Below, in pieces: positions 6,787 to 26,270 of a stretch of 64,000 nt of DNA. Made by a program: the position numbers and the translations under genes. The notes beneath the pieces are model-generated. The model searched no databases, was not told the DNA's origin, and saw only the letters and a program-made list of their open reading frames with translations. The DNA is taken from positions 1 through 64,000 of IMG/VR virus record IMGVR_UViG_3300010362_000015. One strand, 5' to 3'. The stretch comes from a virus. Its lineage: Duplodnaviria > Caudoviricetes. Every line of letters starts with the position of its first letter. The stretch's first letter is position 1.

Positions 6787-6831
6787 AGTATGACAAGTTG
6801 CATGCATCTGGTCAACGGGTTTGGGGTGAAA
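6787..6831 (-). promoter_or_regulatory. Cassette promoter
   Basis: TTTCACCCC-N7-TTGACC-17 nt (GATGCATGCAAC)-CATACT-6 nt-ATG. Confidence 0.85.
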
Positions 6832-7045
6832 CCTTCGGCGGCTTGACCACTTCCGGCCCCATCTCGGTGATGACCCGCCGGATCACCTGATAGGCGCTGC
6901 CGCGGAATTCCTTCGACAGCCGCACGGCGTCGGCGCGGGCCTCGCGTTCGCTGGCCCGCCGCTCGCCCTCGTACCACTCCAGCATCTTGCCGTTTTCGTC
7001 CCGGCCACAAACCCGCACGGCCTCATACCATGTGTGCGTCGTCAT
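6812..7045 (-). CDS. Cassette hypothetical protein
   Basis: Ends VSPQTR at the TGA of the next -35 box. Confidence 0.65.
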   Translation of the reverse strand: MTTHTWYEAVRVCGRDENGKMLEWYEGERRASEREARADAVRLSKEFRGSAYQVIRRVITEMGPEVVKPPKVSPQTR

Positions 7046-7398
7046 GCCGCCTCCGGCTCGGGCTCGCGGATTGCGCCGACGGCGTCCGCGGCGCGGTTGA
7101 AGGTGCTGGGCCGCACGCCGTTCTCCCAGGCGTCCCTGATCGGCTTGGCGGGATTCTTCATGCAGGCCGGGCAGCCGTGGCCCCCGATGGTCAGCATCGA
7201 GCCGTCGGCGAAGTCGAAGCGGATCGACATCGGCGTGGAGAGGAAGGACGAGCGCACGGCGTGGAACTCGCCGCAGCCGTGGCAGACCAGAACGTGATCG
7301 TAGGCGTTGAAAGTCCTACCGTCGTCTTCGATCTGGACGAGCCGCTGCTTCAATGCGCTGATCGCGCTCTTTGCTTGGGTGACTGCTGTGTTGTTCAT
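7042..7398 (-). CDS. Cassette hypothetical protein with two CxxC motifs
   Basis: Starts MNNTAV at the promoter-adjacent ATG; CHGC and CPAC. Confidence 0.7.
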   Translation of the reverse strand: MNNTAVTQAKSAISALKQRLVQIEDDGRTFNAYDHVLVCHGCGEFHAVRSSFLSTPMSIRFDFADGSMLTIGGHGCPACMKNPAKPIRDAWENGVRPSTFNRAADAVGAIREPEPEAA

Positions 7399-7404
7399 GA
7401 GTCC

Positions 7405-7449
7405 ATTCTCTCGCGATGCATGCATCTGGTCAAGTACGTTGGGGTGAAA
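7405..7449 (-). promoter_or_regulatory. Cassette promoter
   Basis: TTTCACCCC-N7-TTGACC-17 nt (GATGCATGCATC)-GAGAAT-6 nt-ATG. Confidence 0.85.
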
Positions 7450-7675
7450 TGCGCACGCGCCCGCCGGGCCCGATGTCCTCGGCAGAGGCGCTGGGGGCGC
7501 CCTTGCGTTTGAGCAGGTCCCAGACCTTGTCACGCAGGCCGTTGTAGACCTCGGTGCAGTCCTCGGTCCAGTCGGCGTAGTCGCCCTCGCCCCAAGGGGC
7601 TGCCGCCGCGATAGCGCACATGTCGTTGATGAGCGCCAGCTCAGCGGCGGTGAAGGCGATACGCTTAGTCGGCAT
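7430..7675 (-). CDS. Cassette hypothetical protein
   Basis: MPTKRIAF start; ends ISPQRT at the -35 TGA. Confidence 0.6.
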   Translation of the reverse strand: MPTKRIAFTAAELALINDMCAIAAAAPWGEGDYADWTEDCTEVYNGLRDKVWDLLKRKGAPSASAEDIGPGGRVRISPQRT

Positions 7676-7925
7676 AGGCCTCGTAGTAGCCCAGCTCATG
7701 GAGCTTGTCGCAGGCCGCGGCGCAGGCATGGTAGACCTCGTCGCAAGCCTCGCAGTACAGCTCGTCCTCGTTGCCGGAGGAGATCACGTCCTCGCCGTGC
7801 AGGCCCGCGGGGCACTTGACGCCGAGGAGCAGCTCGGAGGCCTCCAGCAGGCCGTTGAGGAGGTCCTGCCGGTTGTCCAGCAGGGCCTCGATGGTCTTGG
7901 TGTTGATGAATTTGCTGATGTCCAT
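7665..7925 (-). CDS. Cassette hypothetical Cys-rich protein
   Basis: AAGGA SD; C..H..YCEAC motif. Confidence 0.65.
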   Translation of the reverse strand: MDISKFINTKTIEALLDNRQDLLNGLLEASELLLGVKCPAGLHGEDVISSGNEDELYCEACDEVYHACAAACDKLHELGYYEAYAD

Positions 7926-7935
7926 GGTCGTTTCC

Positions 7936-8319
7936 TTAGTCGTAGTAGCCGCAGGCGTAGTCGTAACCGGCGCTGTAGGTGCGGTCCTGCCAGGGATCGA
8001 CGCCCAGCTGGCAATGCATGCAGGTCATGCGCCCGTCGGCCTCCTGGCCGTAGGCGGCGCTGCCGCAGCGCGGGCAATTCTCGGCCTGCCGCTCGGCGGC
8101 GAGCAGTTCCGCGGCCCGCCGCTCGATGGTCTGGAGCCGGATGCCGATTGCGTGGTGGATGTCGCACAGCGCGTTGGCGATCTCGGTATCGTGGACCTCC
8201 TGATGGTTCAGCGTGGCGATCATGCGGATCGAGGCGGAAGCCCGGCGCGTGGGGTTCATGGTGTTCCGGCTGTAGCCCGACGCGGCCAGCTTCTGGATGT
8301 TGAGAAGTGCGTTGTTCAT
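7936..8319 (-). CDS. Cassette Zn-ribbon protein
   Basis: MNNALL start; CPRC..CMHC motif. Confidence 0.7.
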   Translation of the reverse strand: MNNALLNIQKLAASGYSRNTMNPTRRASASIRMIATLNHQEVHDTEIANALCDIHHAIGIRLQTIERRAAELLAAERQAENCPRCGSAAYGQEADGRMTCMHCQLGVDPWQDRTYSAGYDYACGYYD

Positions 8320-8325
8320 GTCCTT

Positions 8326-8371
8326 AGTATGCCGCACATGCATGCATCTGGTCAACTGGCTTGGGGTGAAA
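8326..8371 (-). promoter_or_regulatory. Cassette promoter
   Basis: TTTCACCCC-N7-TTGACC-18 nt (GATGCATGCATG)-CATACT-6 nt-ATG. Confidence 0.85.
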
Positions 8372-8375
8372 CCGT

Positions 8376-8687
8376 TCAGGCGTCTAAGCGCGCCGGGCAA
8401 CTGTCCAGCCGGGCATGCCGCTCACGATAGTAGTCGGGCTTCAGATAGAAGTCGCGGCCAGCCTCGGCGCACAGGCAGTCGCGGCCCTCGGGGTCCATGG
8501 CCAGCGCGTCGGCAGTGATCATCGAGGTCGGGTCGCCGGGCACGCGAATCTTGATGGCGACGTGGTCGCCGAGGATATACGGGTAGCTGATGAATTCCCA
8601 GAAGTCGCCGTTGAGGTCTTTGGCGAGCCGGTGCGGCTTGTGCGTATTTTTCAGGGCGAGCGTTGCGAGCTTTAGATCCAGGTCCAT
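8376..8687 (-). CDS. Cassette hypothetical protein
   Basis: Abuts the upstream stop codon; no family recognised. Confidence 0.65.
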   Translation of the reverse strand: MDLDLKLATLALKNTHKPHRLAKDLNGDFWEFISYPYILGDHVAIKIRVPGDPTSMITADALAMDPEGRDCLCAEAGRDFYLKPDYYRERHARLDSCPARLDA

Positions 8688-8888
8688 CTACTTGCCCTCC
8701 TGCGCCGCGATGTACTGCTTTACCACTCGTCGCGCCTCTTCCATCAAGGCGTCCTCGGGGCATTTCCGCTTGTGGTCGCAATTGGCGAGGTGCGACGCCA
8801 CTAGGTAGTAGAGGACCGCGGCGGTAATCCGCGCCTCCTCGTTGGCCAGGACCTCATCGGCCCTTTCCTTCCAGACGTTCGTCGCCAT
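8688..8888 (-). CDS. Cassette hypothetical protein
   Basis: AGGAGG SD with TAATG coupling. Confidence 0.65.
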   Translation of the reverse strand: MATNVWKERADEVLANEEARITAAVLYYLVASHLANCDHKRKCPEDALMEEARRVVKQYIAAQEGK

Positions 8889-9127
8889 TAGCGGCCTCCT
8901 TTCGCGGCCCGCACTTGGTCGGCGATGTCGCCGGTCGGGGCGATGAACCATACGCCGTGGAACGGCTCGAAGGTGTTGAGCATCGTGGCGCGGCGCCGGG
9001 CGCCCTCGATGGTCTGGTAGCCGAAGGCCTCCGCGGCGTTCGGCGAAACGAAGCCCGCGCCAGCGCGGCCCGTGTAGTAAAGCGTCGCGCCGCTCTTGGT
9101 GCGACCGACGATGGGGAAGAAGTTCAT
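8888..9127 (-). CDS. Cassette hypothetical protein
   Basis: ATG 6 nt after the -10. Confidence 0.7.
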   Translation of the reverse strand: MNFFPIVGRTKSGATLYYTGRAGAGFVSPNAAEAFGYQTIEGARRRATMLNTFEPFHGVWFIAPTGDIADQVRAAKGGR

Positions 9128-9133
9128 GTCTCT

Positions 9134-9179
9134 AGTTTGCCTCGGATGCATGCATCTTGTCAAGTAGTTTGGGGTGAAA
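9134..9179 (-). promoter_or_regulatory. Cassette promoter
   Basis: TTTCACCCC-N7-TTGACA-18 nt (GATGCATGCATC)-CAAACT-6 nt-ATG. Confidence 0.85.
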
Positions 9180-9207
9180 TGGGCCGCCGCGGCGGCCCGG
9201 GCGCAGT

Positions 9208-9579
9208 TCAGCCTGCCCTCTTTTTCACCAGGAACGCGGGCTTCTCGCCGCGGGCCATGCGGTCGGCGGCGGAACGCTTGGCCGACTTGCTGCGGTTTTT
9301 GGAGGTCAGCGATTCCCGTTGCCGGGCGATAGCTTCGGCCACCTGGGGCGGGATCGCGATGCGGATCGCGCCCTCGGCCCCGATGGTTTCGAGAAAGATC
9401 GTGTCGCCCTTGTCCGTCTGCCGGTAGGTCTGCACGATGTAGCTGCGCGCGATGCCGATCAGGGGCATCATGGCGCGGATGGTGGACGGCTTCGACTTGA
9501 CTACGTCGGGCAGCCCTTCGAGCGCCCCGACCAGCCGGTCGAATTCGCTCACAGTGGTAATTGCGTTGTCGTTGCTCAT
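9208..9579 (-). CDS. Cassette hypothetical protein with basic C-terminus
   Basis: GAGG SD; clean ORF. Confidence 0.7.
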   Translation of the reverse strand: MSNDNAITTVSEFDRLVGALEGLPDVVKSKPSTIRAMMPLIGIARSYIVQTYRQTDKGDTIFLETIGAEGAIRIAIPPQVAEAIARQRESLTSKNRSKSAKRSAADRMARGEKPAFLVKKRAG

Positions 9580-9597
9580 TGGTTTACCTCAAACTCG

Positions 9598-9789
9598 TTA
9601 TCGCGGGCCCCGCTTCCTGGCTTCGCGCTCGCGCTTGCGCTCGATCAGCTCGTCGTAGGCCTTTGCCGAGGCCTCCAGCCGCGGCAGGCCCGCGGCCTCC
9701 AGTTCGGCCATGCGGGCCGCATGCCACGCCAGGGCATTCCGCGCGTAGCGCTCGCGCGTCTTGTAGTCGCGGTTGCTGCCGAGGGCCAT
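9598..9789 (-). CDS. Cassette hypothetical protein
   Basis: TAATG coupling. Confidence 0.6.
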   Translation of the reverse strand: MALGSNRDYKTRERYARNALAWHAARMAELEAAGLPRLEASAKAYDELIERKREREARKRGPR

Positions 9790-10097
9790 TAGCGCACCTC
9801 CACGCCGCGCACGAGCGAGGTATAGGAGTTGACGTCCTCGGGCCGCACCGGCTCGACGGTGGCGCGCATGTCGGCGACGCCGGGCCGCGCGGCGATCCAG
9901 CGTTCGGCGCCCGCGCGCGTCTTCCAGTACTTGACCTGCGAGACTTCGTTCTCGGTGTACCAGACGCCGTCCCAGGTGCCCGCGCCGTCGTTCTTCGCGA
10001 CCCAGGCGTTGCGCTCGAACTCGGGGCCGTACTGCCGGGCGATGATCACGCGGATTCGGTAGACCGGCTTGGTTTCGATTACTGCTGTGTTGTTCAT
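9789..10097 (-). CDS. Cassette hypothetical protein
   Basis: Starts MNNTAV, with the first 17 nt identical to the 7398 gene. Confidence 0.7.
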   Translation of the reverse strand: MNNTAVIETKPVYRIRVIIARQYGPEFERNAWVAKNDGAGTWDGVWYTENEVSQVKYWKTRAGAERWIAARPGVADMRATVEPVRPEDVNSYTSLVRGVEVR

Positions 10098-10104
10098 ATT
10101 TCCT

Positions 10105-10149
10105 ATTCTGCCTGATGCATGCATCTGCGTCAAGAGGCTTGGGGTGAAT
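10105..10149 (-). promoter_or_regulatory. Cassette promoter
   Basis: TTCACCCC-N7-TTGACG-17 nt (GATGCATGCATC)-CAGAAT-7 nt-ATG. Confidence 0.85.
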
Positions 10150-10357
10150 TCTTCCAGGCCCAATCGCGCAGCCGGTCGGCGGCGTCGTTGCGGCGCTCGC
10201 CTTCGAGTTGCAGCAGCGTGCTCTCGCCGGGCCGGTTGGGATGCACCAGGACGTCGGCGACGGCGAGCGGCAGATTCTTGCCGCGGTAGCCGAGCGCCCG
10301 CGCGCCGCGGCGCAGGTGCTGGTCGGTGATGTCGCGCTCGGGCCGGGGCCGCCTCAT
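10130..10357 (-). CDS. Cassette hypothetical protein
   Basis: Ends NSPQAS at the -35 TGA. Confidence 0.55.
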   Translation of the reverse strand: MRRPRPERDITDQHLRRGARALGYRGKNLPLAVADVLVHPNRPGESTLLQLEGERRNDAADRLRDWAWKNSPQAS

Positions 10358-10614
10358 ACGTGGGCCGCCACGGCGTCAGCCAGCCTCTTCAGGCCGTCGA
10401 GCACGGTCGCGAGATGCTCCAGCCGCTCGGCGTGCTGGTTGGTCGCCTGGATGAAAGCGCCGGGGCCCTGCGGGTAGTAGTCCCGCGCGTTGGGGCCGTT
10501 CTCGGCGAGTACGCTGATCGCCTCGCGCACGGCGTTCATCGATTTGATGTAGCCGTCCAGCAGGTCACTGGCGGCGGTGCCGTTCAGGTGGATCGAGGGG
10601 GTAATGAGTGCCAT
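10354..10614 (-). CDS. Cassette hypothetical protein
   Basis: PSIHLNGT..PNARDYYPQG..QH.ERL motif, a recurrent small phage ORF type. Confidence 0.7.
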   Translation of the reverse strand: MALITPSIHLNGTAASDLLDGYIKSMNAVREAISVLAENGPNARDYYPQGPGAFIQATNQHAERLEHLATVLDGLKRLADAVAAHV

Positions 10615-10616
10615 GG

Positions 10617-10808
10617 TTAGTTGCCTTTCTCGGCCAGCTCCTCGAAGAGCCGGTCCAGTTCATCGTTCTGACGACGCCGGATGATCCGCTTGGTCGCCCG
10701 CCCGCAGCAGCCGCATTCCCATACCGGGCGCCCTTCGGCGTCCACGGTCGCAGTGTGCCGGGTCTGGCATCCGCAAGCTCCGTTGCACTGGCGTTTCGTC
10801 GTCTTCAT
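10617..10808 (-). CDS. Cassette Zn-finger mini-protein
   Basis: CNGAC..CGCC motif; ATG 7 nt after the -10. Confidence 0.65.
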   Translation of the reverse strand: MKTTKRQCNGACGCQTRHTATVDAEGRPVWECGCCGRATKRIIRRRQNDELDRLFEELAEKGN

Positions 10809-10815
10809 ACTTCCT

Positions 10816-10861
10816 ATTGTGCCGGATGCATGCATCTGCCGTCAACGGGTATGGGGTGAAA
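10816..10861 (-). promoter_or_regulatory. Cassette promoter
   Basis: TTTCACCCC-N7-TTGACG-18 nt (GATGCATGCATC)-CACAAT-7 nt-ATG. Confidence 0.85.
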
Positions 10862-11126
10862 CGCGCTCGCGCCTCGCAAAATACTGCTTGATCATCTCGT
10901 CCTCCGACCGCTCGCGCTCCAGCTCGTTCCAGACCTCGCGCAGCAGGCGCCCGATGCTGCGGCCATAGGGCAGCAGGTCGATGCGGTCCAGCTCGGCCAC
11001 GAGGTCGGGGTCGTCAATGCAGCCCATGACGCCGAGGGCCGAGGCCTTGAAGGCCTCCCAAGTCGTCGGGCCGTTCTTGCGCGCGACCACCATCAGGCGG
11101 AACTTGATGCGCTGGCGGGCGGTCAT
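10842..11126 (-). CDS. Cassette hypothetical protein
   Basis: Ends VSPHTR at the -35 TGA. Confidence 0.65.
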   Translation of the reverse strand: MTARQRIKFRLMVVARKNGPTTWEAFKASALGVMGCIDDPDLVAELDRIDLLPYGRSIGRLLREVWNELERERSEDEMIKQYFARRERVSPHTR

Positions 11127-11127
11127 G

Positions 11128-11319
11128 TTAGCTCACCCTTCCCATCAGCTTCAGGGCCCAGCGGGCGGCCAGCCGTGCGCAGCGACCGGCCTCAGCCGGG
11201 TTGTTGTCGCGAACGTGAAACTCGACCGCGTGGCCCCAGGCGGCAGCCTCGCCGCGGGCGTACTGCGTGTACTCCCGGTCCAGCATGTCTTTGCGCTCGG
11301 ATTTGATCAGCTTCTTCAT
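11128..11319 (-). CDS. Cassette hypothetical protein
   Basis: ATG 7 nt after the -10. Confidence 0.65.
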   Translation of the reverse strand: MKKLIKSERKDMLDREYTQYARGEAAAWGHAVEFHVRDNNPAEAGRCARLAARWALKLMGRVS

Positions 11320-11326
11320 ACTCACT

Positions 11327-11371
11327 ATCCTACCGGATGCATGCATCTGAGTCAATTGGTTTCAGGTGAAA
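11327..11371 (-). promoter_or_regulatory. Cassette promoter
   Basis: TTTCACCTG-N7-TTGACT-17 nt (GATGCATGCATC)-TAGGAT-7 nt-ATG. Confidence 0.85.
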
Positions 11372-11588
11372 TCTTTGCGAGCGCCGCCAGGGCCTCGGTC
11401 TTGGTCTTGAAGCGTCCATACTCGGGGGCCTCGACCCAGCCGCGCACCGGCGAGATCGGATCTTCGGGCCGCACGAGCGACGAGTCCCAGCGGGCGATGC
11501 CCCAGCTGGCTGCGGTGCGCCGCGCGTAGCTGCGCTGGGAGTGGAAGGCCGTGAGGCGGCGGCTGCCGTAGTTGCGGACGGAGAGCAT
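11352..11588 (-). CDS. Cassette hypothetical protein
   Basis: TAATG coupling; ends ISPETN at the -35 TGA. Confidence 0.65.
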   Translation of the reverse strand: MLSVRNYGSRRLTAFHSQRSYARRTAASWGIARWDSSLVRPEDPISPVRGWVEAPEYGRFKTKTEALAALAKISPETN

Positions 11589-11824
11589 TAGCGCACCTCC
11601 GCGGGCGTCATCCAGGCCCGCCGGGTAGCTACGCTCTTCAGCATCTGGCGCACGGTCGAGGCGCTGTGGATGTGGCGGCTGCCGGTGGGATATTCGAGCG
11701 TGACCAGAGAGCCGCCGGTGACCACGGTCGCGACCTCGAAGGCCTCAGTGTTGCGGTTCCAGTATTCAATCTTCATACCGGCCTCGAACTTCCGCGTGTG
11801 CTGAGTGACTGCTTTGTTCATCAT
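11588..11824 (-). CDS. Cassette hypothetical protein (SH3-like beta fold possible)
   Basis: MMNKAVTQ start resembling MNNTAVTQ. Confidence 0.65.
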   Translation of the reverse strand: MMNKAVTQHTRKFEAGMKIEYWNRNTEAFEVATVVTGGSLVTLEYPTGSRHIHSASTVRQMLKSVATRRAWMTPAEVR

Positions 11825-11831
11825 GTCTCTA

Positions 11832-11877
11832 ATCTTATCTGATGCATGCATCTGGAGTCAACGAGCAATGGGTGAAA
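11832..11877 (-). promoter_or_regulatory. Cassette promoter
   Basis: TTTCACCCA-N7-TTGACT-18 nt (GATGCATGCATC)-TAAGAT-7 nt-ATG. Confidence 0.85.
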
Positions 11878-12127
11878 CGCGCCGGGCCTCGCGGCGTTCC
11901 TGCTCCGCGGCCAGCACCTCCTCCTGCCCGTAGATCAGAGCCAGGATGGTGATGCGGCGCTTGTAGTAGAGGCCGAGCCAGCCCTGCGCGGCGACCTTGC
12001 CGTTGCGGTCGTAGAGCCAGCCGCCGTTCATACCGTTGGCGCTGATCTCGACCTTCGCTGCGTACCACTTGGCGAGGCGCACGCGCGCCTCGCTCCAGGG
12101 ATCTTGCCAGCACTTGGGAGTCTTCAC
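11858..12127 (-). CDS. Cassette hypothetical protein
   Basis: Ends VSPIAR at the -35 TGA. Confidence 0.65.
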   Translation of the reverse strand: MKTPKCWQDPWSEARVRLAKWYAAKVEISANGMNGGWLYDRNGKVAAQGWLGLYYKRRITILALIYGQEEVLAAEQERREARRVSPIAR

Positions 12128-12411
12128 TTACTTATCCTCCTTTGCACGCGGTAGCGGGCGACGATCTCGGCCCGGCGGGCGTGATCCTTCAGGGCGTCGG
12201 CCTCAGTGAGGTAGTAAACCCGGCGGCCCCTGGAGTCCTTATCCGGCCCCAGTTCGGCGAACATCCGGGTGCAGTGCAGGCAGCGCCATACCTTGTCATG
12301 CGTGACGCCGATCTCGGTCCCGGTCTTCAGGGCCGTCTTGCATTGCGGGCACTGTGAGTCAAACTTTGCCTTGATGGTTCGGATCTCGGCGGGCTTCATT
12401 GTCGTTTCCAT
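12124..12411 (-). CDS. Cassette Zn-finger protein
   Basis: AKFDSQCPQCK..WRCLHC motif. Confidence 0.7.
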   Translation of the reverse strand: METTMKPAEIRTIKAKFDSQCPQCKTALKTGTEIGVTHDKVWRCLHCTRMFAELGPDKDSRGRRVYYLTEADALKDHARRAEIVARYRVQRRISK

Positions 12412-12417
12412 GTTCTT

Positions 12418-12462
12418 AGTTTGCCAGATGCATGCATCTCACGCAAGGGGGAAGGGGTGAAA
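12418..12462 (-). promoter_or_regulatory. Cassette promoter
   Basis: TTTCACCCC-N7-TTGCGT-17 nt (GATGCATGCATC)-CAAACT-6 nt-ATG; an upstream GGGGTGA forms an inverted repeat with the element. Confidence 0.85.
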
Positions 12463-12465
12463 TGC

Positions 12466-12702
12466 TCACCCCTGTGTCAGCCGCATGTGGCGCCGCGTCA
12501 GCCGCGGATGCCGCCGGAGCCGGTGGCCCTGGCTCATGTTGGTCAGCTGCTCGGCGACGCATGCGACGCGGAACCGCATGGGCGTGTGATGCGCCGCGGT
12601 GGCGTCCAGGGCCGCCGACATCGGCGAGCGCCCGTCGGTTTCGTCGCGGGCGGCCCGGCGCGCAGCGCCCCAGGCCAGATGGAATAATTCTCGTGTCGTC
12701 AT
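12466..12702 (-). CDS. Cassette hypothetical protein
   Basis: AAAGAA SD-like sequence; MTTRELF start. Confidence 0.55.
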   Translation of the reverse strand: MTTRELFHLAWGAARRAARDETDGRSPMSAALDATAAHHTPMRFRVACVAEQLTNMSQGHRLRRHPRLTRRHMRLTQG

Positions 12703-12716
12703 GTTCGTTCTTTCCT

Positions 12717-12980
12717 TTACCCTTTGAGGGCCGCCTCCGCGGCGGCCCGGTTGGTGCGCTTCCACTGCCCGTTCTGCATGAGGTAGAAGGTCGCGCGGAA
12801 GTGTTCCCGCTTGGGCATCGTGCGTGCGGTCACCGGAACCACATAAGCCTGGACGACGCCGTTGTCGGCGCTGCCTCTCTTCCAGCAAGCCTGAAACGTG
12901 CTGCCGTCTTCCCGGGTAACGGTGCGGATCTCCAGGGCCTTCGCGATTGCCGCGTCGATCAGTTGTTCTAACGTGTTCAT
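12717..12980 (-). CDS. Cassette hypothetical protein
   Basis: ATG 6 nt after the -10. Confidence 0.7.
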   Translation of the reverse strand: MNTLEQLIDAAIAKALEIRTVTREDGSTFQACWKRGSADNGVVQAYVVPVTARTMPKREHFRATFYLMQNGQWKRTNRAAAEAALKG

Positions 12981-12986
12981 GACTTA

Positions 12987-13031
12987 AGTATGCCAGATGC
13001 ATGTATCTGGAGCAAGGGGCTTGGGGTGAAA
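12987..13031 (-). promoter_or_regulatory. First cassette promoter of the array
   Basis: TTTCACCCC-N7-TTGCTC-17 nt (GATACATGCATC)-CATACT-6 nt-ATG. Confidence 0.85.
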
Positions 13032-13033
13032 TG

Positions 13034-13062
13034 CAAAAAAAGAGGGGCCCATTGCGGGCCCC
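13034..13062 (-). terminator. Intrinsic terminator insulating the cassette array
   Basis: GGGGCCC-GCAAT-GGGCCCC then TCTTTTTTT, immediately upstream of the first promoter. Confidence 0.8.
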
Positions 13063-13113
13063 GAATTAATGGAGCTGTAAATGAAGCCGCGGGCCGGAAG
13101 GCCCTGGCAGCTG

Positions 13114-13344
13114 TCAGTCTATCGTTGATCGGGGCCGACGGGTGATGCCTTTCGAGCCCCACTGTTCGATACACCACTGGCGGGCCAATTCCCGCACCGT
13201 GCGCCCGCAGCGCGTGCAGAGGATGCGCTGGACGCCGTCCTGCGAGTTCTGCACCACCGGCAGGCCGCAACAAAACGGGACCGCGTGCCCCTCGGGCGTG
13301 GTGCGCAGTTCCTCGAATTCCAGCAGGGCCTCGGCGAGAGTCAC
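13114..13344 (-). CDS. Hypothetical Zn-ribbon protein
   Basis: FCCG..CTRC motif; GTG overlaps the upstream TGA. Confidence 0.55.
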   Translation of the reverse strand: MTLAEALLEFEELRTTPEGHAVPFCCGLPVVQNSQDGVQRILCTRCGRTVRELARQWCIEQWGSKGITRRPRSTID

Positions 13345-13637: not shown

Positions 13638-13807
13638 GCGCCAATCCTCCGCGCCCACTGCACCAGACTGTCGAGCGGCTGGCCCAGGAACCGGCGCACC
13701 ATCGGGGCCGCGAAGACGATCACGCCCGCATCGTCCACATCCACCTGCACGGTGAACGCGCAGCATGTCACCCAGTACTTCATCCGGCCAGCTTTGGCAG
13801 CCGCCAC
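13613..13807 (-). CDS. Small hypothetical protein
   Basis: V..DDAGVIVFAAPMVRRFLGQP motif. Confidence 0.6.
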   Translation of the reverse strand: MAAAKAGRMKYWVTCCAFTVQVDVDDAGVIVFAAPMVRRFLGQPLDSLVQWARRIGACKVHRLN

Positions 13808-14367: not shown

Positions 14368-14972
14368 AGCTCGGGGATCGACCACTGAACGTGATGAACG
14401 ATCTCTTTGCATGTCTTCAACTCCCGAATCAGCGCCCCTGCGATTTTCATACGCCGGTTCAGGCTGCGCCAATCGGGGCTTCTCCGATACGCCTCATCCT
14501 CCATGCGCGAGTATTCGATGCGAACGCCAGCCATATTGCGTGCAGTCCACTGTTTTGCCCCGCTATACGGACCCATCAATCCCGGCCCGATGATGATGCC
14601 ATGTTGTGGCCGCTCGGCCTGCCAGATGGAGAAGTCCGCGAACACGCGGTCGGCGACCGCGATCAGATGGCCGTTCCACCTGCCGACGGTTGATCCGACC
14701 GGAGGATGACCGAATCCGATCCCGATGCTATAGGAGCCGTCAACGCTGATCCACTTGCGGAGGTCGTAGTCGCCCTCGTCGATATGCATCGCGAACGCGC
14801 GGTTGTAGATCGCCACTTGGCAGGCGACGGGTTGAACCTCGATGCCAAAATATCGCGCGACTTCCATGGCGACGCGCACGCCGAACACGCACAGGTCGCG
14901 CCGCTTCAGGTTCGTTTCAATCGCCGGGCCGATCCGCGGGACGAGCTGCTGGAAGAGTTCCGCGGCGGTCAC
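14364..14972 (-). CDS. Hypothetical protein (transglutaminase-like C/H/D triad possible)
   Basis: DLCV..WNGHLIAV..FADFS spacing. Confidence 0.6.
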   Translation of the reverse strand: MTAAELFQQLVPRIGPAIETNLKRRDLCVFGVRVAMEVARYFGIEVQPVACQVAIYNRAFAMHIDEGDYDLRKWISVDGSYSIGIGFGHPPVGSTVGRWNGHLIAVADRVFADFSIWQAERPQHGIIIGPGLMGPYSGAKQWTARNMAGVRIEYSRMEDEAYRRSPDWRSLNRRMKIAGALIRELKTCKEIVHHVQWSIPEL

Positions 14973-15466
14973 TCTCCGGCCTCCGTCTCGTAGATCACCT
15001 CAGCATAGGCGAAGCGCACAAGCCGGATCTTCTTGCCCATGGCGCTGGCTTGCGCCTCGAAGCGCTCCGCGAAGGGCTCGACCTTGCCGCGCTTGACCGC
15101 CACGATGGGAATGTAGCCCGCCGGGCAGAGGCCTTGCTTGATGCCCCATTCGCCGGTGCGTTGAGTGCGGTCGGGCTGATCGTCCTGGCCGATCCAGGCG
15201 TATAGCTCCATGTTCTTAATCCGTTCGGGTATGCGGTTCACGATCATTTCCTTGTCGATCACTCCCAGGTCTGTCGCCGCCCGCAACAAATCTTTCAGGT
15301 CATGCGCATCGAATTTTTCGTACAGGTGATACCAGTGGTTCCTCACGCTCTGAGAAGTTGTGCGCAGACGGCCTGCGATCTGCCGGGCGTTTCTTCCTGC
15401 GGCCAGCAGCTTGAGAATATCCAGCTCACGCGGAGTGAGGTGCGGCGGCTTTGCGGGCCCTGTCAC
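14969..15466 (-). CDS. LuxR/GerE-type HTH protein with C-terminal unknown domain
   Basis: LTPRELDILKLLAAGRNARQIAGRLRTTSQSVRNHWYHLYEKF. Confidence 0.8.
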   Translation of the reverse strand: MTGPAKPPHLTPRELDILKLLAAGRNARQIAGRLRTTSQSVRNHWYHLYEKFDAHDLKDLLRAATDLGVIDKEMIVNRIPERIKNMELYAWIGQDDQPDRTQRTGEWGIKQGLCPAGYIPIVAVKRGKVEPFAERFEAQASAMGKKIRLVRFAYAEVIYETEAGE

Positions 15467-19155: not shown

Positions 19156-19158
19156 ATG

Positions 19159-20094: not shown

Positions 20095-20101
20095 GACAAC
20101 C

Positions 20102-20428
20102 TCACGCCGCGGTCGAGCGCTTCTGCGGCTCTTGCAGCTCGGCCCTGGTCGGCATTCGATACAGCGACGGGTCGAGCCACGTCGTCAGCGGCGCGTAGAC
20201 GTTCTTGCGCGTGATGCTGGTGTGGCCGAACTGCTCCCAGGCCTCGACGCCCGCGCGCGTCGCGTGGAAGCCCTTGCCCGGCCTGTATGCGACCCAGCCT
20301 CGGATCAACATGCTCCTGAGCGGCCTCTGGTCGTAGCGCGCCGCATCTACGACGGGCATGTACCAGTTGGTGCCGTTCTGCGCGAAGATCTTGAGCATCG
20401 GGTGCTGCCGGTTGCTGAGGTTGATCAT
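20102..20428 (-). CDS. Winged-helix-like hypothetical protein
   Basis: LRSMLIRGWVAY..FHATRAG.EA wing motif. Confidence 0.55.
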   Translation of the reverse strand: MINLSNRQHPMLKIFAQNGTNWYMPVVDAARYDQRPLRSMLIRGWVAYRPGKGFHATRAGVEAWEQFGHTSITRKNVYAPLTTWLDPSLYRMPTRAELQEPQKRSTAA

Positions 20429-20784
20429 TCGCTCTCTCCTTTCTTCGGCTCGCGCAGGATAGCTTCGACGTCCATTTGGTCGGCAATCGAAAAAGTGCTG
20501 GGATTGCCGCCGGGATTCGCGTAACCAGACCGCTCGGCGAGCCGTATGCGGGCCGGTGTGACGACGTGCAGGTCGCAATAGGCGCAGCAGCGGCCATTGT
20601 TGACCGGCTCGGCGTTGCTGGAGAATTCGGGAAACGGCTCCTGGCAGATCGAGCAAATTTGACGCCGCGGTTTGCGCCTGCCGGTGATCGCGAAGTGAGC
20701 GTGAGTCGTCGGCATGACGACTGCGCTGGTGATGCCGTTCGCCGCCAGATATTCGCGGGCCTCTGCTGCGGATTGAAATATCAT
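20425..20784 (-). CDS. Zn-finger hypothetical protein
   Basis: CSIC..NAEPV..GRCC..C..V.PARI. Confidence 0.65.
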   Translation of the reverse strand: MIFQSAAEAREYLAANGITSAVVMPTTHAHFAITGRRKPRRQICSICQEPFPEFSSNAEPVNNGRCCAYCDLHVVTPARIRLAERSGYANPGGNPSTFSIADQMDVEAILREPKKGESE

Positions 20785-21209
20785 GCTGCGGCCTCCGGCG
20801 ATCCGTTGGTCTGCTTCGCCTTGCCGTTCATCTTGGAGATGAGGGCTTTCTGCTCCTTCGGCGTCATCCCGTCCCAGGCCTCGTTCTTTTTGGCCTTCTT
20901 GATTTTCACCGTCGGCTTCCACTTCGCCCTGCGCCGGGCCATCTCGGCCCTGCGCGCCTTCGGGTCCGCGGGCCAGCCGCTCGACAGCTTGGGCGGCCTG
21001 CCGCGGCGGCCTCGCACGGTGGCGGGCTTGACCAGCAGCTCGGTCGCAGCGTTCTGCGCGGCGTCGATCTCGTGCAGCTCGGCCTGTATTCTGGCCGCCA
21101 TGGCGTCCAGCATGCGCATCACGCGCTTGATGCTCTCCAGCTGGACCTCCAGGCCCATGCGCTCGTACTCCGATGGCACGCGTGCCTCTGATTCGGTGTT
21201 TTGCTTCAT
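20781..21209 (-). CDS. Coiled-coil plus AT-hook basic DNA-binding protein
   Basis: N-terminal heptad helix, RGRRGRPPK, Lys-rich tail; own promoter TTGAAA-18-TAGTAT near 21265-21294. Confidence 0.6.
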   Translation of the reverse strand: MKQNTESEARVPSEYERMGLEVQLESIKRVMRMLDAMAARIQAELHEIDAAQNAATELLVKPATVRGRRGRPPKLSSGWPADPKARRAEMARRRAKWKPTVKIKKAKKNEAWDGMTPKEQKALISKMNGKAKQTNGSPEAAA

Positions 21210-21383
21210 CCTCTGATCAGCTCCATTTCCTTAGTGGTCTAGCCGCCACTTTTTTTGCTATTGATACTACATCTATCGGGCGCGAAATTTCAAACCATTC
21301 CTATTAGTCAAACGTGTGAAATAAAACTGGCTCCATCGCTAATGTTATCCAAAAACGGCAAAGAGTTGCCGAATCCTGGATAA

Positions 21384-21728
21384 TCAGGCCGCGGCGATGC
21401 AGGCGCATTTCTTCACGCAGGAAAAGCCGCCCTTCTCCACCCAGATCCAACCGGAGCCGCCGCAGACCGGGCAGCCGGTATTCTTCGGTGAGCTGAGGTT
21501 GTAGTCGTCCGGTGGATGAAAATAGTCGAAGATGTCGCCCGGCTTCGGGCACTCCCGTTTTCTCTGCGTCAGCGTCCAGCTATCGACAAAGCCTTCAGCG
21601 GCCTCGCGCGTGGGCGCTTCCATCATGGCCTTGAGCAGCTGCCCGACGGCTCCTTCGTCCTGCGGGAAATAGCTCAAACCCGACAATCTTCTAACTAGCA
21701 CGTATGCGATTGCAGGATCTATCGGCAT
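21384..21728 (-). CDS. Replication accessory protein (helicase-loader position) with Zn finger
   Basis: Directly downstream of the initiator; CP.PGDI and CPVCGGSGW..CAC. Confidence 0.55.
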   Translation of the reverse strand: MPIDPAIAYVLVRRLSGLSYFPQDEGAVGQLLKAMMEAPTREAAEGFVDSWTLTQRKRECPKPGDIFDYFHPPDDYNLSSPKNTGCPVCGGSGWIWVEKGGFSCVKKCACIAAA

Positions 21729-22794
21729 ATAGCCTCAGCACCTCCTCCATCTTTGCGTCGGCTTTGCTCATGGGCTTGCGCACCACCGGCTCGATGCGCC
21801 ACTCGCCCTCGGCTATCCATCGCCACAACTGCGGAACGTACTTTTCCACCGGTAGCGTCGCCCAGTATTCGCACCACGCCGGATGATGCTCGCGCATAAC
21901 GTTGGCAGCTGACGGGTCGCGCCGCAGAACCTTGTCGATCTCCGCGGCGGCCTTGAGCGGCAGGCCCGGCTGTGGATGTTCCGCCATCAGCTCGAAGGCC
22001 AGCTGCTCGGCCTCGGAAACCTGTCGAACTTCGCCGTGCTCGCCCGGTATATAGTTCGGGGGCGGCGAGTCGGGTCTGGTCCCGGGCCGGTAGTCTGCAC
22101 CGTCAGCCACTCGTTGAACGGCGTCGCCCCCTGAGCACACCCCCTGGCTCACCGGCTGAGCCCGGGCTTGTAAATTCTCCTTCAATGAACCAGATCGAAC
22201 CGGTTCTGCTGCCGGTTCCACTCGCGCTCGGTGTTGCTCTATTTTCGACTCATCACACGCCGCCGCCGCCGCCGCCGGTCGCGCCTCGTCTCGCCCCTTC
22301 TTAACTTCAACAGGCGGCACGGCGGCGAGTGGTTCAGAAACAGATGGTTCAAAGACAGTTGGTTCATATATAGATAGCGGCAGCTCGAACTGTCGCTGGT
22401 GACAACTTGTCTTTGTCATCGGTGACAACTTGTCTTTGTCATCGGTGACAGTTCGGCTTCGTCTCGCCCGTGGCCGAGTTGCCCGGTTCTCGGCCTTCTG
22501 CCACTGGTCCTCGGTGGCGATTACGTAGTCACAGGACAAGCTGCCATGCTGCTGGACTCGGAGGATGCCGCGGGACCGCAGCAGGCCGGTCGCCCGATCC
22601 AATGTGCTGAGCGAAATCCCGGCACGCTCGGCCAGCTTCTCGCGCTTGGGATTACACTGGCCCGTCTGCCTGTTACGAAACGTCATTAAAGCGGCGAAAA
22701 CTCTTATCACCGAGTGCGTGACGGAATGATCACAAGCCAATACTTGAGGGATGCAAATGTAAGGGGTTGTGGGATAATAAGCAGCAGTGGACAC
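21691..22794 (-). CDS. HTH replication initiator (lambda O-like)
   Basis: N-terminal RVFAALMTFRNRQTGQCNPKREKLAERAGISLSTLDRATGLLRSRGIL; internal iterons; GTG start inferred. Confidence 0.8.
   Translation of the reverse strand: MSTAAYYPTTPYICIPQVLACDHSVTHSVIRVFAALMTFRNRQTGQCNPKREKLAERAGISLSTLDRATGLLRSRGILRVQQHGSLSCDYVIATEDQWQKAENRATRPRARRSRTVTDDKDKLSPMTKTSCHQRQFELPLSIYEPTVFEPSVSEPLAAVPPVEVKKGRDEARPAAAAAACDESKIEQHRARVEPAAEPVRSGSLKENLQARAQPVSQGVCSGGDAVQRVADGADYRPGTRPDSPPPNYIPGEHGEVRQVSEAEQLAFELMAEHPQPGLPLKAAAEIDKVLRRDPSAANVMREHHPAWCEYWATLPVEKYVPQLWRWIAEGEWRIEPVVRKPMSKADAKMEEVLRLYADRSCNRIRAS
22398..22450. repeat. Iteron-like tandem repeat (putative ori) inside the initiator gene
   Basis: GGTGACAACTTGTCTTTGTCATC twice, plus a partial GGTGACA. 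Confidence 0.75.
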
Positions 22795-22910
22795 CGGGTC
22801 ATCTCCCTGGCCTTTGCGGACCTGACTAAGTCGTTTGCAGCGACTAAGGTGTTCGATGGGTAAAAGTCTCGCGGCTCGCACCGGCGGGCCGCATTTGTTT
22901 TTTACGGTCC

Positions 22911-23267
22911 TTAAGGCGCGCGTTCGAGGCGTTCCAGCCAATCGCGGAGTTGCTCTCCGGCCTGCACGATGACGATGTCGAAGCCGTAGCCCATACGCAG
23001 TTCGGCGTGCCGCTTGCGCTGCACGTCGGTCGGCTGCTCGCCGGGCCGCTTCGCTTCCATGAAGACGGAGCCGGGGGCGGCCAGCAGCCAGTCGGGATCG
23101 CCGGGCGTGCCCATCGTCACCCAGTTCCCATTCGGCGTGCGGAACCGCCCCACATGTTGGCGCACCGGGTAATACCCGTATCGCCGCGCCAGCTTCAAGC
23201 ACACGCGCTCGACGTCGTTTTCGGAATACTCGACGCGCTCGGGGCGCAGTGCAAATCTGGAACTCAC
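22911..23267 (-). CDS. VRR-NUC domain nuclease
   Basis: SENDVE..GTPGDPD..FMEAKRPGEQPTDVQ. Confidence 0.85.
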   Translation of the reverse strand: MSSRFALRPERVEYSENDVERVCLKLARRYGYYPVRQHVGRFRTPNGNWVTMGTPGDPDWLLAAPGSVFMEAKRPGEQPTDVQRKRHAELRMGYGFDIVIVQAGEQLRDWLERLERAP

Positions 23268-23485
23268 GCCGCGGCTCCTTCGGGCGCAGGCGGCGGGACG
23301 TTGACGATCTCGAAGCCGCAGTGCATGAACTGCCCGGCCAGCGAAACCCACAGGCCGCGCTCGCAGCCGATCACGCCGACCGTCGTCCACTCACCCGAGC
23401 CGCGCTGCATCTCCATGCGACCGTGTACGCGATCCGGCACGCGCACGGCGTACCACATCACCCGATACTTGATGCTGGGGGTCAC
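23264..23485 (-). CDS. Small hypothetical protein
   Basis: Coupled on both sides. Confidence 0.55.
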   Translation of the reverse strand: MTPSIKYRVMWYAVRVPDRVHGRMEMQRGSGEWTTVGVIGCERGLWVSLAGQFMHCGFEIVNVPPPAPEGAAA

Positions 23486-23856
23486 GCTGCCACTGCGTCC
23501 TGCGCCGCGCGCCTCACGCGGATGCGGCAGTTGGTGCAGACATCAGCTTTGTCCAGCTCGTCCCATTCGAGGTAGCCCTTCTTGTGACTGGCCTTGACCT
23601 CGGTTTTGCACCACGTGAGGTCGAAGCCGAACATCGAGAGATGGCGCACGCGCGAGATCACCGCGGTCTTCAACGCGCCCTTGCCGCGAACGATCTGCGA
23701 CAGCGCCTGGAGCTGCCGCGCTTCGACCGCGGCGTTGGACTTCTTCTTCACGCAGTCCATGCACTCGGCCCAGGCCGGAGTCACGGTCTTGTGGATGTTC
23801 GGATCGGGATGCTGGCTCGCCTCAGGAATGGGGTTGCCGCACGTCTTGCAGATCAT
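23482..23856 (-). CDS. Zn-finger hypothetical protein
   Basis: CKTC..CMDC, H..TWC..CTNC. Confidence 0.65.
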   Translation of the reverse strand: MICKTCGNPIPEASQHPDPNIHKTVTPAWAECMDCVKKKSNAAVEARQLQALSQIVRGKGALKTAVISRVRHLSMFGFDLTWCKTEVKASHKKGYLEWDELDKADVCTNCRIRVRRAAQDAVAA

Positions 23857-24128
23857 CGGGCGACCTCCGGCGTTGTCATGGCGATGCGCAGCGCATCGAT
23901 GTCATCGGGGTACTTGTTCTTGAAGTCGGCCAGCGTGTACGTGAGGTCGAGTTTGGGCCGCTTGCCCCACGGGCACATCGGACCTTCCCAGTGATAGCGG
24001 ATGAGGTCGCCGTCGAGCTTGGCCCACTCGAACGATTCCTGCGTGATCGAACGGCGGAAGATCTCGATCATCGATTCCTCCCGAACGCAAAAAACCCGGG
24101 GGCGCGCGGCCCCCGGGTCGATTGGCAT
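23853..24128 (-). CDS. Hypothetical protein
   Basis: MPIDPG start chosen to avoid overlap with the recombinase. Confidence 0.55.
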   Translation of the reverse strand: MPIDPGAARPRVFCVREESMIEIFRRSITQESFEWAKLDGDLIRYHWEGPMCPWGKRPKLDLTYTLADFKNKYPDDIDALRIAMTTPEVAR

Positions 24129-24147
24129 CCAATATTGGCCGGTGATC

Positions 24148-25839
24148 TCACGCGGCCCTCTTCCTGGCATATCTGCCGGGAACACGTCCCTTTAAATTGA
24201 ACGGGATAGTGACGAAAGAACTGTTATCGCCGGGAACACCGCAATAACAGTTTCCAGCCGGTAAAACTACCCGCCCGATGATCTCGAACTCGCGGGTGCG
24301 GTCGTCGTAGATGACCTTCTCGCAGAAGCGCTTGAGGATCTCCACGCGGTCGGCGAACTCAGTCGGCTCGCCGGGCTCCACGATCTCGTCGCAGAAACTC
24401 TCGATGGCCGCATCCTCCGGCATAGCCACCACGTTGGCCTGCGCTGCGATGTCGGCCTTCACCACCTCGATCTGCGCCTTCACGGCAGCCAAGCGCTTCT
24501 GCGCCTCCGCATAGGGCACTGAGCTGTTCTGGTCGTACACCACGTCCACTGCGCGCTTCTCCTGCTTCAGGAGGGCCGCCAACTGGGCCTTCAGGTCAGG
24601 ACCGGCGGCGGGTTTGCCCTGGCATCCATAGTACGCCCGCACCCAGCCTTTGAGAGTAGCTTTGTTGGTGACTTCGGACCAGACCACGGTAAAGACCGAC
24701 CGGTCCAGGAGCTTCGAGGAAACGCCCCCGGCGGGACACAACCGGACGCAGTAATCCTTGCGGTCTATGTTGCCGCAACGATACGTCGGGCCGCCGCTGC
24801 CCGGGCTGGTGCTCAGGCGGCTGCCGCAGCGCTTGCAGACGGCCATCTTGGAAAGCTCGTACTGCTTCGACGGACGGCCTACGCGCAGGGCCTTGTTCCG
24901 CAGGTTGGCCTGCACTTTGTGGAAGACCGCCGCGGTGACGATGCTGGGGCATTTGGTGATCTTCTCTTCGCCGTCGATGGACTCATGAAAGTCGCCGATG
25001 TAGGCCGTGTTGGTGAGCATCTGGTACACAGTGGTGCGGCCCCAGCGACCGTCGTTCACGTCGCCCCTGGTGCGGCTCTTCCTGCTCAGTTTCTTTCCGG
25101 CGCGTGGGCTTGGGATGCCGAGCTTGTTGAGTTTCCGCGCGATCTCGGTCGGCCCGAGATGCGGATCGCAGGCCCACAGGAACACCATGCGGATGATCTC
25201 GGCCTGCGCATCGATGACAACCATGGTGCCGCGCGAGCCCTGCTTCTTGCCGACATACTTGTACCCGAAGGGCACACTGTTCGTCATGACGAATCCCTCG
25301 CGGGCTTTCTGGCGGCGGCAGCGCGTGGTGCGCTCGATGATCTTGTACTTCTCGTACTCGTTCATCGCGCCCTTGAAGTGGCGCATCAGGTTTCCCTCGG
25401 GCGAACGGGCGTAGTCCTCGTTGACGAATTCCAGGCGCACGTTGTGCTGCTCGCACAGATCTTCGAGAAAGAGCTGCAAGCTCAGCTTGCGGATCAGCCG
25501 GTCGAGCGAGAAGACCAGCAGCACGTCGATGAGTTCCGCGCGAATGATGTCGATCAACCTCTGGACGGCGGGCCGGTTGAGATCCTTGCCGCTGAAGTTG
25601 TCGTCGATGAACATCAGACTGTCATCGGTGTAGTAGCCGCGCTTCTTGGCGCATTCGAGCGTTTCGTAATCCTGCGACTTGATGGAGTAGTTGGCCCCGA
25701 CCTCGCTCTCTGGCGTCGGCGAGATCCGCGCGTAGCGCGCGCAGACCAGCAGCTTGGTGTCGGGCCGCTTGAACACTACCTGAAGATCAGATTTGGCGGC
25801 GGGCTGTTTAGGCCGCTTCGTTGGTCGCGGACTCATCAT
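24148..25839 (-). CDS. Large serine recombinase (integrase)
   Basis: YARIS catalytic motif, SGKDLNRP, SLDRLIR, PFGYK recombinase domain, Zn ribbon CKRC..RC..C, and coiled coil. Confidence 0.92.
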   Translation of the reverse strand: MMSPRPTKRPKQPAAKSDLQVVFKRPDTKLLVCARYARISPTPESEVGANYSIKSQDYETLECAKKRGYYTDDSLMFIDDNFSGKDLNRPAVQRLIDIIRAELIDVLLVFSLDRLIRKLSLQLFLEDLCEQHNVRLEFVNEDYARSPEGNLMRHFKGAMNEYEKYKIIERTTRCRRQKAREGFVMTNSVPFGYKYVGKKQGSRGTMVVIDAQAEIIRMVFLWACDPHLGPTEIARKLNKLGIPSPRAGKKLSRKSRTRGDVNDGRWGRTTVYQMLTNTAYIGDFHESIDGEEKITKCPSIVTAAVFHKVQANLRNKALRVGRPSKQYELSKMAVCKRCGSRLSTSPGSGGPTYRCGNIDRKDYCVRLCPAGGVSSKLLDRSVFTVVWSEVTNKATLKGWVRAYYGCQGKPAAGPDLKAQLAALLKQEKRAVDVVYDQNSSVPYAEAQKRLAAVKAQIEVVKADIAAQANVVAMPEDAAIESFCDEIVEPGEPTEFADRVEILKRFCEKVIYDDRTREFEIIGRVVLPAGNCYCGVPGDNSSFVTIPFNLKGRVPGRYARKRAA

Positions 25840-26219
25840 GAGCGCGCTTCTCCTCCTGCTCGCGTTTTCGCCGCCGTTGAATGCGCAGCAGCGCTTCGAC
25901 CAGATCGCGCGCGTTCTGCTCGGCCTGGGGGCTTGGCTCCGCGCCGGTGATCGTCCCCTTCAGTAACGGCTGCTTGGACGACGCCCGCCCAGGTGGCTTC
26001 CTGGCCATCAGCGATAGCCTCCACGGCGGCGAGCTTGGCCTTGAGCACCGGGGCCGCGTAGTGGGCGCAGATGCGCAGCGCCTCGACGGGATCGTCGGTC
26101 CTGGTATTGAGCTGCAGTACGTCGCCCCTGAGGTCGCGGTAGATCGCCCAGTAAACGACGCCTCGTTTGTGTATCGACCCGGCCCGAAACGGCAGCCGCG
26201 TCTGAATGGGTTTCTTCAT
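25836..26219 (-). CDS. Stand-alone Arm-type DNA-binding-like protein upstream of the integrase
   Basis: GSIHKRGVVYWAIYRD..NTRTDD..EA resembles the three-stranded arm-binding domain of tyrosine integrases. Confidence 0.55.
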   Translation of the reverse strand: MKKPIQTRLPFRAGSIHKRGVVYWAIYRDLRGDVLQLNTRTDDPVEALRICAHYAAPVLKAKLAAVEAIADGQEATWAGVVQAAVTEGDDHRRGAKPPGRAERARSGRSAAAHSTAAKTRAGGEARS

Positions 26220-26225
26220 GTCTCG

Positions 26226-26270
26226 AAATTAACATGATCCGTATTAAGCCTCAAGAGTTTTGGGGTGAAA
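26226..26270 (-). promoter_or_regulatory. Cassette-type promoter lacking the palindromic operator
   Basis: TTTCACCCC-N7-TTGAGG-17 nt-TAATTT-6 nt-ATG. Confidence 0.75.

Follow-up and report, generated by a model that had tools for sequence, protein, structure and literature searches.

A repeated promoter-like module carries the stop codons of seven upstream genes in a phage of a likely acidobacterial host

The closest described counterparts of the element studied here are the promoter-early stem-loop (PeSL) cassettes of T4-type phages (Arbiol et al. 2010, PMC2839356; Comeau et al. 2014, PMC4122927), units at which genes are gained and lost and for which recombinational shuffling has been shown (PMC2839356). 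We analyzed a stretch of 64,000 nucleotides (hereafter the window), the first 64 kb of a 73,592-bp (73.6-kb) IMG/VR virus record with 62.6% GC (IMGVR_UViG_3300010362_000015; Duplodnaviria, Caudoviricetes), which contains 13 forward copies of a 54- to 56-nt module, all on the minus strand. When aligned, the 13 copies share one order of parts, i.e., a purine (R), the 9-mer TTTCACCCC, 7 nt, a -35 hexamer, a spacer of 17-18 nt, a -10 hexamer, 6 nt, and an ATG; seven upstream genes run into a module and end on the TGA of its -35 hexamer. We consider it probable that these in-promoter stops are a side effect of promoter cassettes packed flush against upstream genes, produced by compaction and selection, and that they do not represent a gene-capture device. 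As in PeSLs, the modules are repeated σ70-like promoter units in short gaps between small ORFan genes. The idea of a two-sided junction is already known, and what differs here is the stop site, the leaderless starts, the operator, the 9-mer, and the type of phage and host. Specifically, the stop in PeSLs is located in an AT-rich stretch upstream, whereas here it is located within the -35 hexamer; the mRNAs expected here are leaderless, with no Shine-Dalgarno (SD) sequence; the module lacks a stable terminator stem-loop and has a spacer palindrome and the extra 9-mer instead, with a separate terminator in front of only one copy (the module at 13031); and PeSLs belong to T4-type myoviruses, whereas the modules belong to a temperate siphovirus-type phage with a lambda-type portal, the likely host of which is an acidobacterium. 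Shuffling has been seen in PeSLs only; gene gain at a module may be represented here by one block insertion, led by a module that starts 1 nt past the upstream stop, as judged against a single relative.

Other known arrangements share individual features with this locus. Compact genomes show ATGA stop/start overlaps as well as promoters within the 3' ends of upstream genes, and the -35 consensus TTGACA holds a TGA in one frame. Such ordinary signal overlap likewise puts one DNA stretch to two uses; here, the same register is kept in all seven instances of the overlap, since the repeated promoter has constant internal spacing. A literature search by phrase for stop codons that overlap a -35 box gave no usable result. 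Integron cassettes are promoter-less and end in a folded attC, whereas the cassettes described here have a predicted promoter of their own and a junction without a stable fold, although no search aimed at an integron integrase was made. Morons are said to go back to Juhala, Hendrix et al. in 2000. As reviewed elsewhere (PMC3594210), they are independent transcription units between genes that are adjacent in related phages, and a block that follows the tape-measure gene in the window, which has its own promoter and is absent from a relative, fits this description; by contrast, the 13 units described here have one common promoter-operator head, many of them overlap the upstream open reading frame (ORF), and most cassettes run straight into the next module without a terminator of their own. 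Repeats in mycobacteriophages, including Cluster A stoperators, Cluster K start-associated sequences, and Cluster O palindromic leaderless promoters (PMC9283540, PMC4351075), are similar in that a short motif is present in many copies, which occupy small gaps between genes and point in the direction of transcription, and the Cluster O elements are SigA-like promoters predicted to yield leaderless mRNAs. Cluster A stoperators are asymmetric 13- to 14-bp repressor sites that block elongation, whereas the present sequence has a 14-nt palindrome in a promoter spacer; in addition, the whole promoter is repeated here, the repeat overlaps coding sequence, and the host belongs to another phylum. Finally, highly similar promoters in front of unrelated genes of one genome have been reported as promoter reuse or putative mobile promoters (PMC3575422); that survey concerns cellular prokaryote genomes, and its abstract does not describe a promoter that serves as the stop of the upstream gene.

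An earlier note on this DNA had described seven ORFs that end on the TGA of TTGAC or TTGAG with the tail (V/I/N)-S-P-x-x-x, and all seven are present on the minus strand as claimed. Each gene reads R-TT TCA CCC and three further codons, with the stop six codons past the last gene-specific codon. The module at 6778-6831 ends gene 6812-7045 (tail VSPQTR) with its TGA at 6812-6814 and starts a 308-aa gene with its ATG at 6780, while the module at 7396-7449 ends gene 7430-7675 (ISPQRT; TGA 7430-7432) and starts a gene with the product MNNTAV... at ATG 7398. Gene 10130-10357 (NSPQAS; TGA 10130-10132) is ended by the module at 10095-10149, gene 10842-11126 (VSPHTR; TGA 10842-10844) by that at 10806-10861, gene 11352-11588 (ISPETN; TGA 11352-11354) by that at 11317-11371, and gene 11858-12127 (VSPIAR; TGA 11858-11860) by that at 11822-11877. 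The seventh module (26217-26270), which has the -35 hexamer TTGAGG, ends gene 26251-26565 (ISPQNS; TGA 26251-26253) and heads a gene pair, the last gene of which encodes the serine integrase. Three of the seven read-through 9-mers are one- or two-mismatch variants, namely ATTCACCCC at 10149, TTTCACCTG at 11371, and TTTCACCCA at 11877. In six of the seven genes, a GC content at third codon positions (GC3) of 0.83-0.93 distinguishes the run-through frame as far as the edge of the module, and a near-identical Logan contig has gene calls for six of the seven ORFs; for the seventh gene, the best reading is 26251-26565, with the start at an ATGA overlap with its upstream gene, and the coding pattern is weaker but consistent.

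Frame use at the modules is uniform. In all nine modules with TTGA, the frame used has its stop at offset 17, whereas the two other frames have stops at offsets 21-549 (typically 40-66), such that read-through in those frames crosses the operator and the -10 hexamer, and often the next start codon, over 13-180 codons. All seven genes that enter a module take the TGA frame (p = 4.6e-4 for this frame, which was chosen after the data had been seen, and 1.4e-3 with any frame allowed). At junctions without a module, genes mostly overlap by 4 nt or 1 nt, while the gap from stop to ATG at modules is 31-36 nt. Two other accounts of the frame were rejected: TGA recoding, since TGA is the commonest stop in this phage and ends 28 of 47 called genes, conserved ones included, and simple insertion at an ATGA junction, since this would yield one of the other two frames.

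The near-miss stops listed in the earlier note were also found. The module at 8317-8371 has a TTGAC that does not serve as a stop, and gene 8376-8687 ends in the same frame on its own TGA 4 nt ahead of the 9-mer. Gene 12466-12702 ends 3 nt ahead of the module at 12409-12462, which has TTGC and no TGA, the gene's own TGA being part of a partial reversed 9-mer (GGGGTGA). Two further TTGC modules, at 45401-45455 and 45074-45127, start 1 nt past the tape-measure stop TAG (45457-45459) and 0 nt past the TGA of gene 45128-45403, respectively. Overall, a gene end is located within a module or at most 4 nt from it in 11 of the 13 forward copies. The remaining two modules adjoin other features: the first of the array (12978-13031, TTGC) directly follows an intrinsic-terminator-like hairpin with a T-run at 13035-13062, and the module at 9125-9179, for which the upstream stop is at 9208, adjoins an 18-nt GC palindrome at 9181-9198. 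This perfect palindrome (GGGCCGCCGCGGCGGCCC), which ends 1 nt before the module, could be a hairpin or a binding site. The four TTGC modules (12409-13031 and 45074-45455) form two adjacent pairs, the first member of each having the palindrome variant ATACATGCAT, and may be a separate sub-class or a duplicated pair.

A reversed form of the 9-mer (GGGGTGAAA on the coding strand) occurs on the plus strand at 4928-4936, 5457-5465, 5816-5824, and 5832-5840, straight after gene stops and 4-6 nt ahead of the -35 hexamers of promoters with SD-led genes. As claimed, the stop of gene 4930-5166 (TGA 4930-4932) lies inside the first of these, which is followed 4 nt on by the -35 hexamer TTGACT, and the gene end at 5468 lies 2 nt before the second. 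Genes 4930-5166 and 12466-12702 both end in CAG GGG TGA, with the TGA drawn from the reversed motif; at 12462, the partial reversed and the forward 9-mer form an inverted pair, and the reversed copy at 5816 is the loop of a terminator-like hairpin.

With regard to the anatomy of the module, the first T of the 9-mer is located at 13031, 12462, 11877, 11371, 10861, 10149, 9179, 8371, 7449, 6831, 45455, 45127, and 26270. A degenerate further copy was found at 1579, and the remaining genome beyond the window has no module copies. The left edge is sharp, with information content jumping 1-2 nt before the 9-mer and nothing conserved further upstream, and lies flush against an upstream feature in all 13 copies. 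At one mismatch or less, the 9-mer occurs 25 times, as compared to 9.4 expected. The 7-nt stretch that follows has the consensus AAGCCnG, which is alike in modules with and without read-through and is thus conserved at the DNA level rather than the protein level. The -35 hexamer usually starts with TTGAC (TTGC in four copies and TTGAG in one), the spacer carries the 14-nt palindrome AGATGCATGCATCT in all copies but the one at 26270, the -10 hexamer ends in T, and the 6-nt distance from the -10 hexamer to the ATG is found in 13 of 13 copies. Module RNA is not predicted to form a stable hairpin, with folds at z-scores of -0.95 to +1.4 relative to shuffled sequence.

A consensus scan of 4.5-13.5 kb yielded seven σ70-like sites, as compared to 1.3 expected, and all seven fall inside modules; the other six module copies have weaker -35 (TTGC, TTGAG) or -10 hexamers. 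SD-like motifs precede 30 of 37 other genes and only 2 of 13 module-led genes (p = 5e-5). Since the ATG coincides with the expected transcription start and SD motifs are rare, the modules are best read as leaderless promoters, i.e., σ70-type promoters with mRNAs that should start at the A of the ATG. The spacer palindrome is a putative operator, and the phage-specific 9-mer, 7 nt upstream of the -35 hexamer, is probably a protein-binding site; the combination TTTCACCCC-N7-TTGA is not enriched in the metagenome-assembled genome (MAG) of Terracidiphilus sp. that contains the nearest relative found, which argues that the 9-mer is no general host promoter element in that genome. On the public contig, the gene caller placed starts at 6765, 8343, and 12399, as compared to the predicted leaderless ATGs at 6780, 8319, and 12411; the called start at 8343 is an ATG within the operator. 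Most module-led genes open with ATG AAC or ATG AAG, and three otherwise unrelated first genes of cassettes (7381-7398, 10080-10097, and 11801-11824, minus strand) begin MNNTAV or MMNKAV, two of them being identical over the 17 nt after the ATG, which exceeds the likeness of their promoters. These shared 5' ends could result from selection acting at the start of leaderless mRNAs, or the repeat unit could extend into the gene. The Terracidiphilus relative has two promoter units of like design (TTGACA, another palindrome, TATGAT, 7 nt, and ATG) at 2694-2741 and 4165-4212 of L059, which are 90% identical, carry the palindrome TAAACCCCATGGGGTTTA, and have neither the 9-mer nor abutting genes; the first of these units drives a homologue of window gene 10354-10614.

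Two of the seven run-through proteins have detectable homologues, and in both cases the homologues lack the module-coded tail, as the earlier note had anticipated. For the product of gene 6812-7045 (P0001), 34 relatives were found, with a conserved core that ends near residue 61-64, followed by unrelated tails of 1-37 residues; the nearest relative can be aligned through K71, the codon before the module-coded VSPQTR, and then has three differing residues to its end. In the AlphaFold model of P0001, residues 3-60 form a beta-beta-alpha-beta core, while residues 61-77 have no secondary structure and a pLDDT >90. For the product of gene 7430-7675 (P0002), tblastn identified one 67-aa homologue, which is 38% identical and ends ~15 residues earlier. 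In the phage that encodes this homologue (L052), the P0002-like gene, one intervening gene, and a P0001-like gene are found in the same order as in the window, with 4-nt overlaps and no promoters between them. As judged by these comparisons, P0001 and P0002 hold the complete conserved core of their families and are extended or end-swapped proteins, not truncated fragments. Searches of Pfam and PHROGs gave no match for any of the seven proteins, all of which are singletons at 90% identity, and an all-against-all BLAST identified no paralogues among the array proteins. A word-based homologue search with P0004, P0006, and P0002 returned only the queries, a weak negative since it also missed the 38%-identical homologue of P0002.

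One insertion could be reconstructed. In the Terracidiphilus relative, the tape-measure TGA overlaps the ATG of a 146-aa tail gene (TGATG), and the 800-nt block with two cassettes that is found in the window at 44657-45456, between the tape-measure stop and the GTG (44656) of the 146-aa gene, is absent. The tape-measure protein encoded in the window aligns with that of the relative to the final residue, and the 146-aa protein aligns over residues 1-146; the 800 nt thus sit exactly between the two genes, with the first module 1 nt past the tape-measure stop and the second directly after the next stop. This comparison indicates that cassettes land flush with stop codons; at this sole reconstructable junction, the upstream gene kept its own stop. 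The block is flanked by a 9-nt direct repeat, GCAGCATCG, at 45465-45473 and 44656-44664 on the minus strand, which could be microhomology or a duplication left by insertion; seven copies of this 9-mer are present in the window (1.75 expected), and the right copy provides the G of the GTG of the 146-aa gene. The relative also has a 270-aa Cys-rich, HNH endonuclease-like ORF (L074, 2951-3763) between the genes for the 146-aa and the large tail protein, which the window does not have at this site.

The phage in the window is a temperate, GC-rich siphovirus-type phage with a lambda-family portal, and genes for an S49 prohead protease, the serine integrase, a YqaJ-type exonuclease, a GerE-type regulator (14969-15466), and an AraC-type regulator (34052-35059) were also found; the two regulators are candidates for binding to the palindrome and the 9-mer. 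GenBank phages include no close match, as megablast of the array returned nothing and portal identity was at best <40%, and a search of IMG/VR with a 303-aa protein and the tape-measure protein identified no relatives. The nearest relative is a 24-kb contig from the Terracidiphilus sp. MAG (Acidobacteriota) with 66% portal identity, and this kinship makes an acidobacterium, from soil, the likely host; neither P0004, P0006, nor the 303-aa protein has a homologue in the MAG. The gene order of the near-identical Logan contig (31 kb, run SRR5215473) is the same as that in the window. The window also encodes (2171-2815, minus strand) a 214-aa, Gly/Ser/Tyr-rich protein with a signal peptide and a beta-barrel-like sequence, which resembles an outer-membrane protein, i.e., moron-type cargo that would suit a diderm host.

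The reading that we favor builds on the observed anatomy, frames, and leaderless signature of the modules, on tails that are not conserved, and on a single flush insertion. The repeat would be the self-contained head of an early promoter cassette, with a σ70-type promoter, a palindromic operator in the spacer, and the 9-mer upstream; cassettes, each composed of a module and one to three small ORFan genes, would be placed flush at the ends of upstream genes in a genome where most genes overlap, and a promoter of 51 nt would have to be fitted between the genes of such a tightly packed genome. A module placed directly after a stop codon would automatically be in the phase where R-TT opens a codon, with the TGA seven codons on. 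Because the distance between the 9-mer and the -35 hexamer does not vary, any ORF entering the module at a codon boundary (R-TT TCA CCC) reaches the TGA after six codons. In the TGA phase, a gene's own stop would be redundant and its loss or deletion would cost six extra residues; in the other phases, long read-through over regulatory DNA and the next gene would result, so that only fusions in the TGA frame would be tolerated. Since the TGA is intrinsic to TTGAC and only one frame gives a short tail, a bias of seven out of seven can be expected without a designed adaptor. We infer that the fusions arose either by insertion and subsequent loss of the stop or by insertion a few codons into the 3' end. 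In addition, the A of TTGA may be under a mild double constraint, or the module may take part in recombinational shuffling as in PeSLs.

A number of points weigh against this reading. A single module-bearing genome is available, as searches for the module in IMG/VR and JGI metagenomes gave single chance matches only and no second such genome, and the frame bias was tested on the data that suggested it. The TGA frame is also that of four of the six genes that end on a stop of their own (p = 0.10), a result that selection on fusions alone does not predict and that fits modules landing directly after stops. None of the four TTGC modules is read through, the upstream genes or terminators ending on their own (Fisher p = 0.02, qualified by the fact that the four copies represent two neighboring pairs and are not independent), and the A of TTGA could thus be kept partly as a stop, a mild form of an adaptor. 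Homologues are available for only two of the seven proteins, and promoter activity and transcription start sites are deduced from the sequence alone.

The strongest competing explanation, which we nevertheless regard as unlikely, is that proposed in the earlier note, i.e., an evolved two-sided adaptor. According to this proposal, the module is a mobile junction with a selected in-frame stop, such that stop-less ORFs or fragments that come to lie between modules are terminated, transcribed, and translated, with exchange through recombination between modules as in the PeSLs of T4-type phages. Part of this proposal stands: the module encodes the last six codons and the stop of seven genes as well as the predicted promoter and the ATG of the next gene, and insertion at gene 3' ends is borne out by the left edge, flush in 13 of 13 copies, and by the 800-nt block, which was inserted precisely where two genes meet. 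All seven fusions have the same phase, TTGA is kept wherever it serves as a stop and TTGC is confined to modules without this use, no paralogy exists among the cassette genes, which are ORFans, and the YqaJ-type exonuclease hints at a recombination system able to use short homology. A designed stop-supplying function, however, is not supported, as the TGA is inherent in any TTGAC -35 hexamer and adaptation is unnecessary, and neither is the capture of stop-less fragments, since both testable proteins are of full length and the upstream stop was left in place at the reconstructed insertion. Moreover, no relative with swapped cassettes was found in the IMG/VR and JGI metagenome searches, and the near-identical contig shows no change in gene order. 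Somewhat less likely again is a more specific version, in which the module is the junction of a PeSL-like shuffling system in a temperate acidobacterial phage and the phase (R-TTTCACCCC, 7 nt, TTGA, seven codons) has been selected; if true, cassettes that recombine at any module would retain a correct stop at the left side and a leaderless start at the right side, and the module would be a universal in-frame junction that domesticates incoming ORFs.

It is highly improbable that the xSPxxx tail is itself functional, e.g., as a common C-terminal tag that mediates degradation, binding, or modification, with the 9-mer kept partly for its Ser-Pro. Seven unrelated proteins do share (V/I/N)-S-P plus three residues, and the high pLDDT of residues 61-77 in the P0001 model would be compatible with such a role; however, the 9-mer and the 7 nt after it show the same conservation in the six forward copies without read-through, the 9-mer also occurs in reversed copies, homologues do without the tail, and the three variable residues track the DNA consensus of these 7 nt. 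Finally, the notion that the run-through ORFs are products of chance or annotation in 63% GC DNA rich in long open frames, to which several modules with two or three frames open for >60 codons upstream lend some color, has been largely refuted by the GC3 signal, by the same six ORF calls from an independent gene caller on the near-identical contig, and by the two proteins with homologues, and is barely credible.

Flush packing of promoter cassettes, the reading we prefer, implies that repeats of a regulatory cassette can remodel the C-terminal ends of unrelated proteins, here seven with a promoter-encoded six-residue tail, and annotators and structure predictors should not take such shared tails as a protein motif; the leaderless genes, in turn, are mis-started by gene callers here. 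To our knowledge, phage gene regulation in Acidobacteriota is almost unstudied, and our findings add a temperate phage of Acidobacteriota to the T4-type phages and actinobacteriophages in which a cassette-style layout of early genes is known. Should relatives be found, this array would be well suited to examining whether repeated promoters drive the exchange of genes in phages beyond the T4 group.

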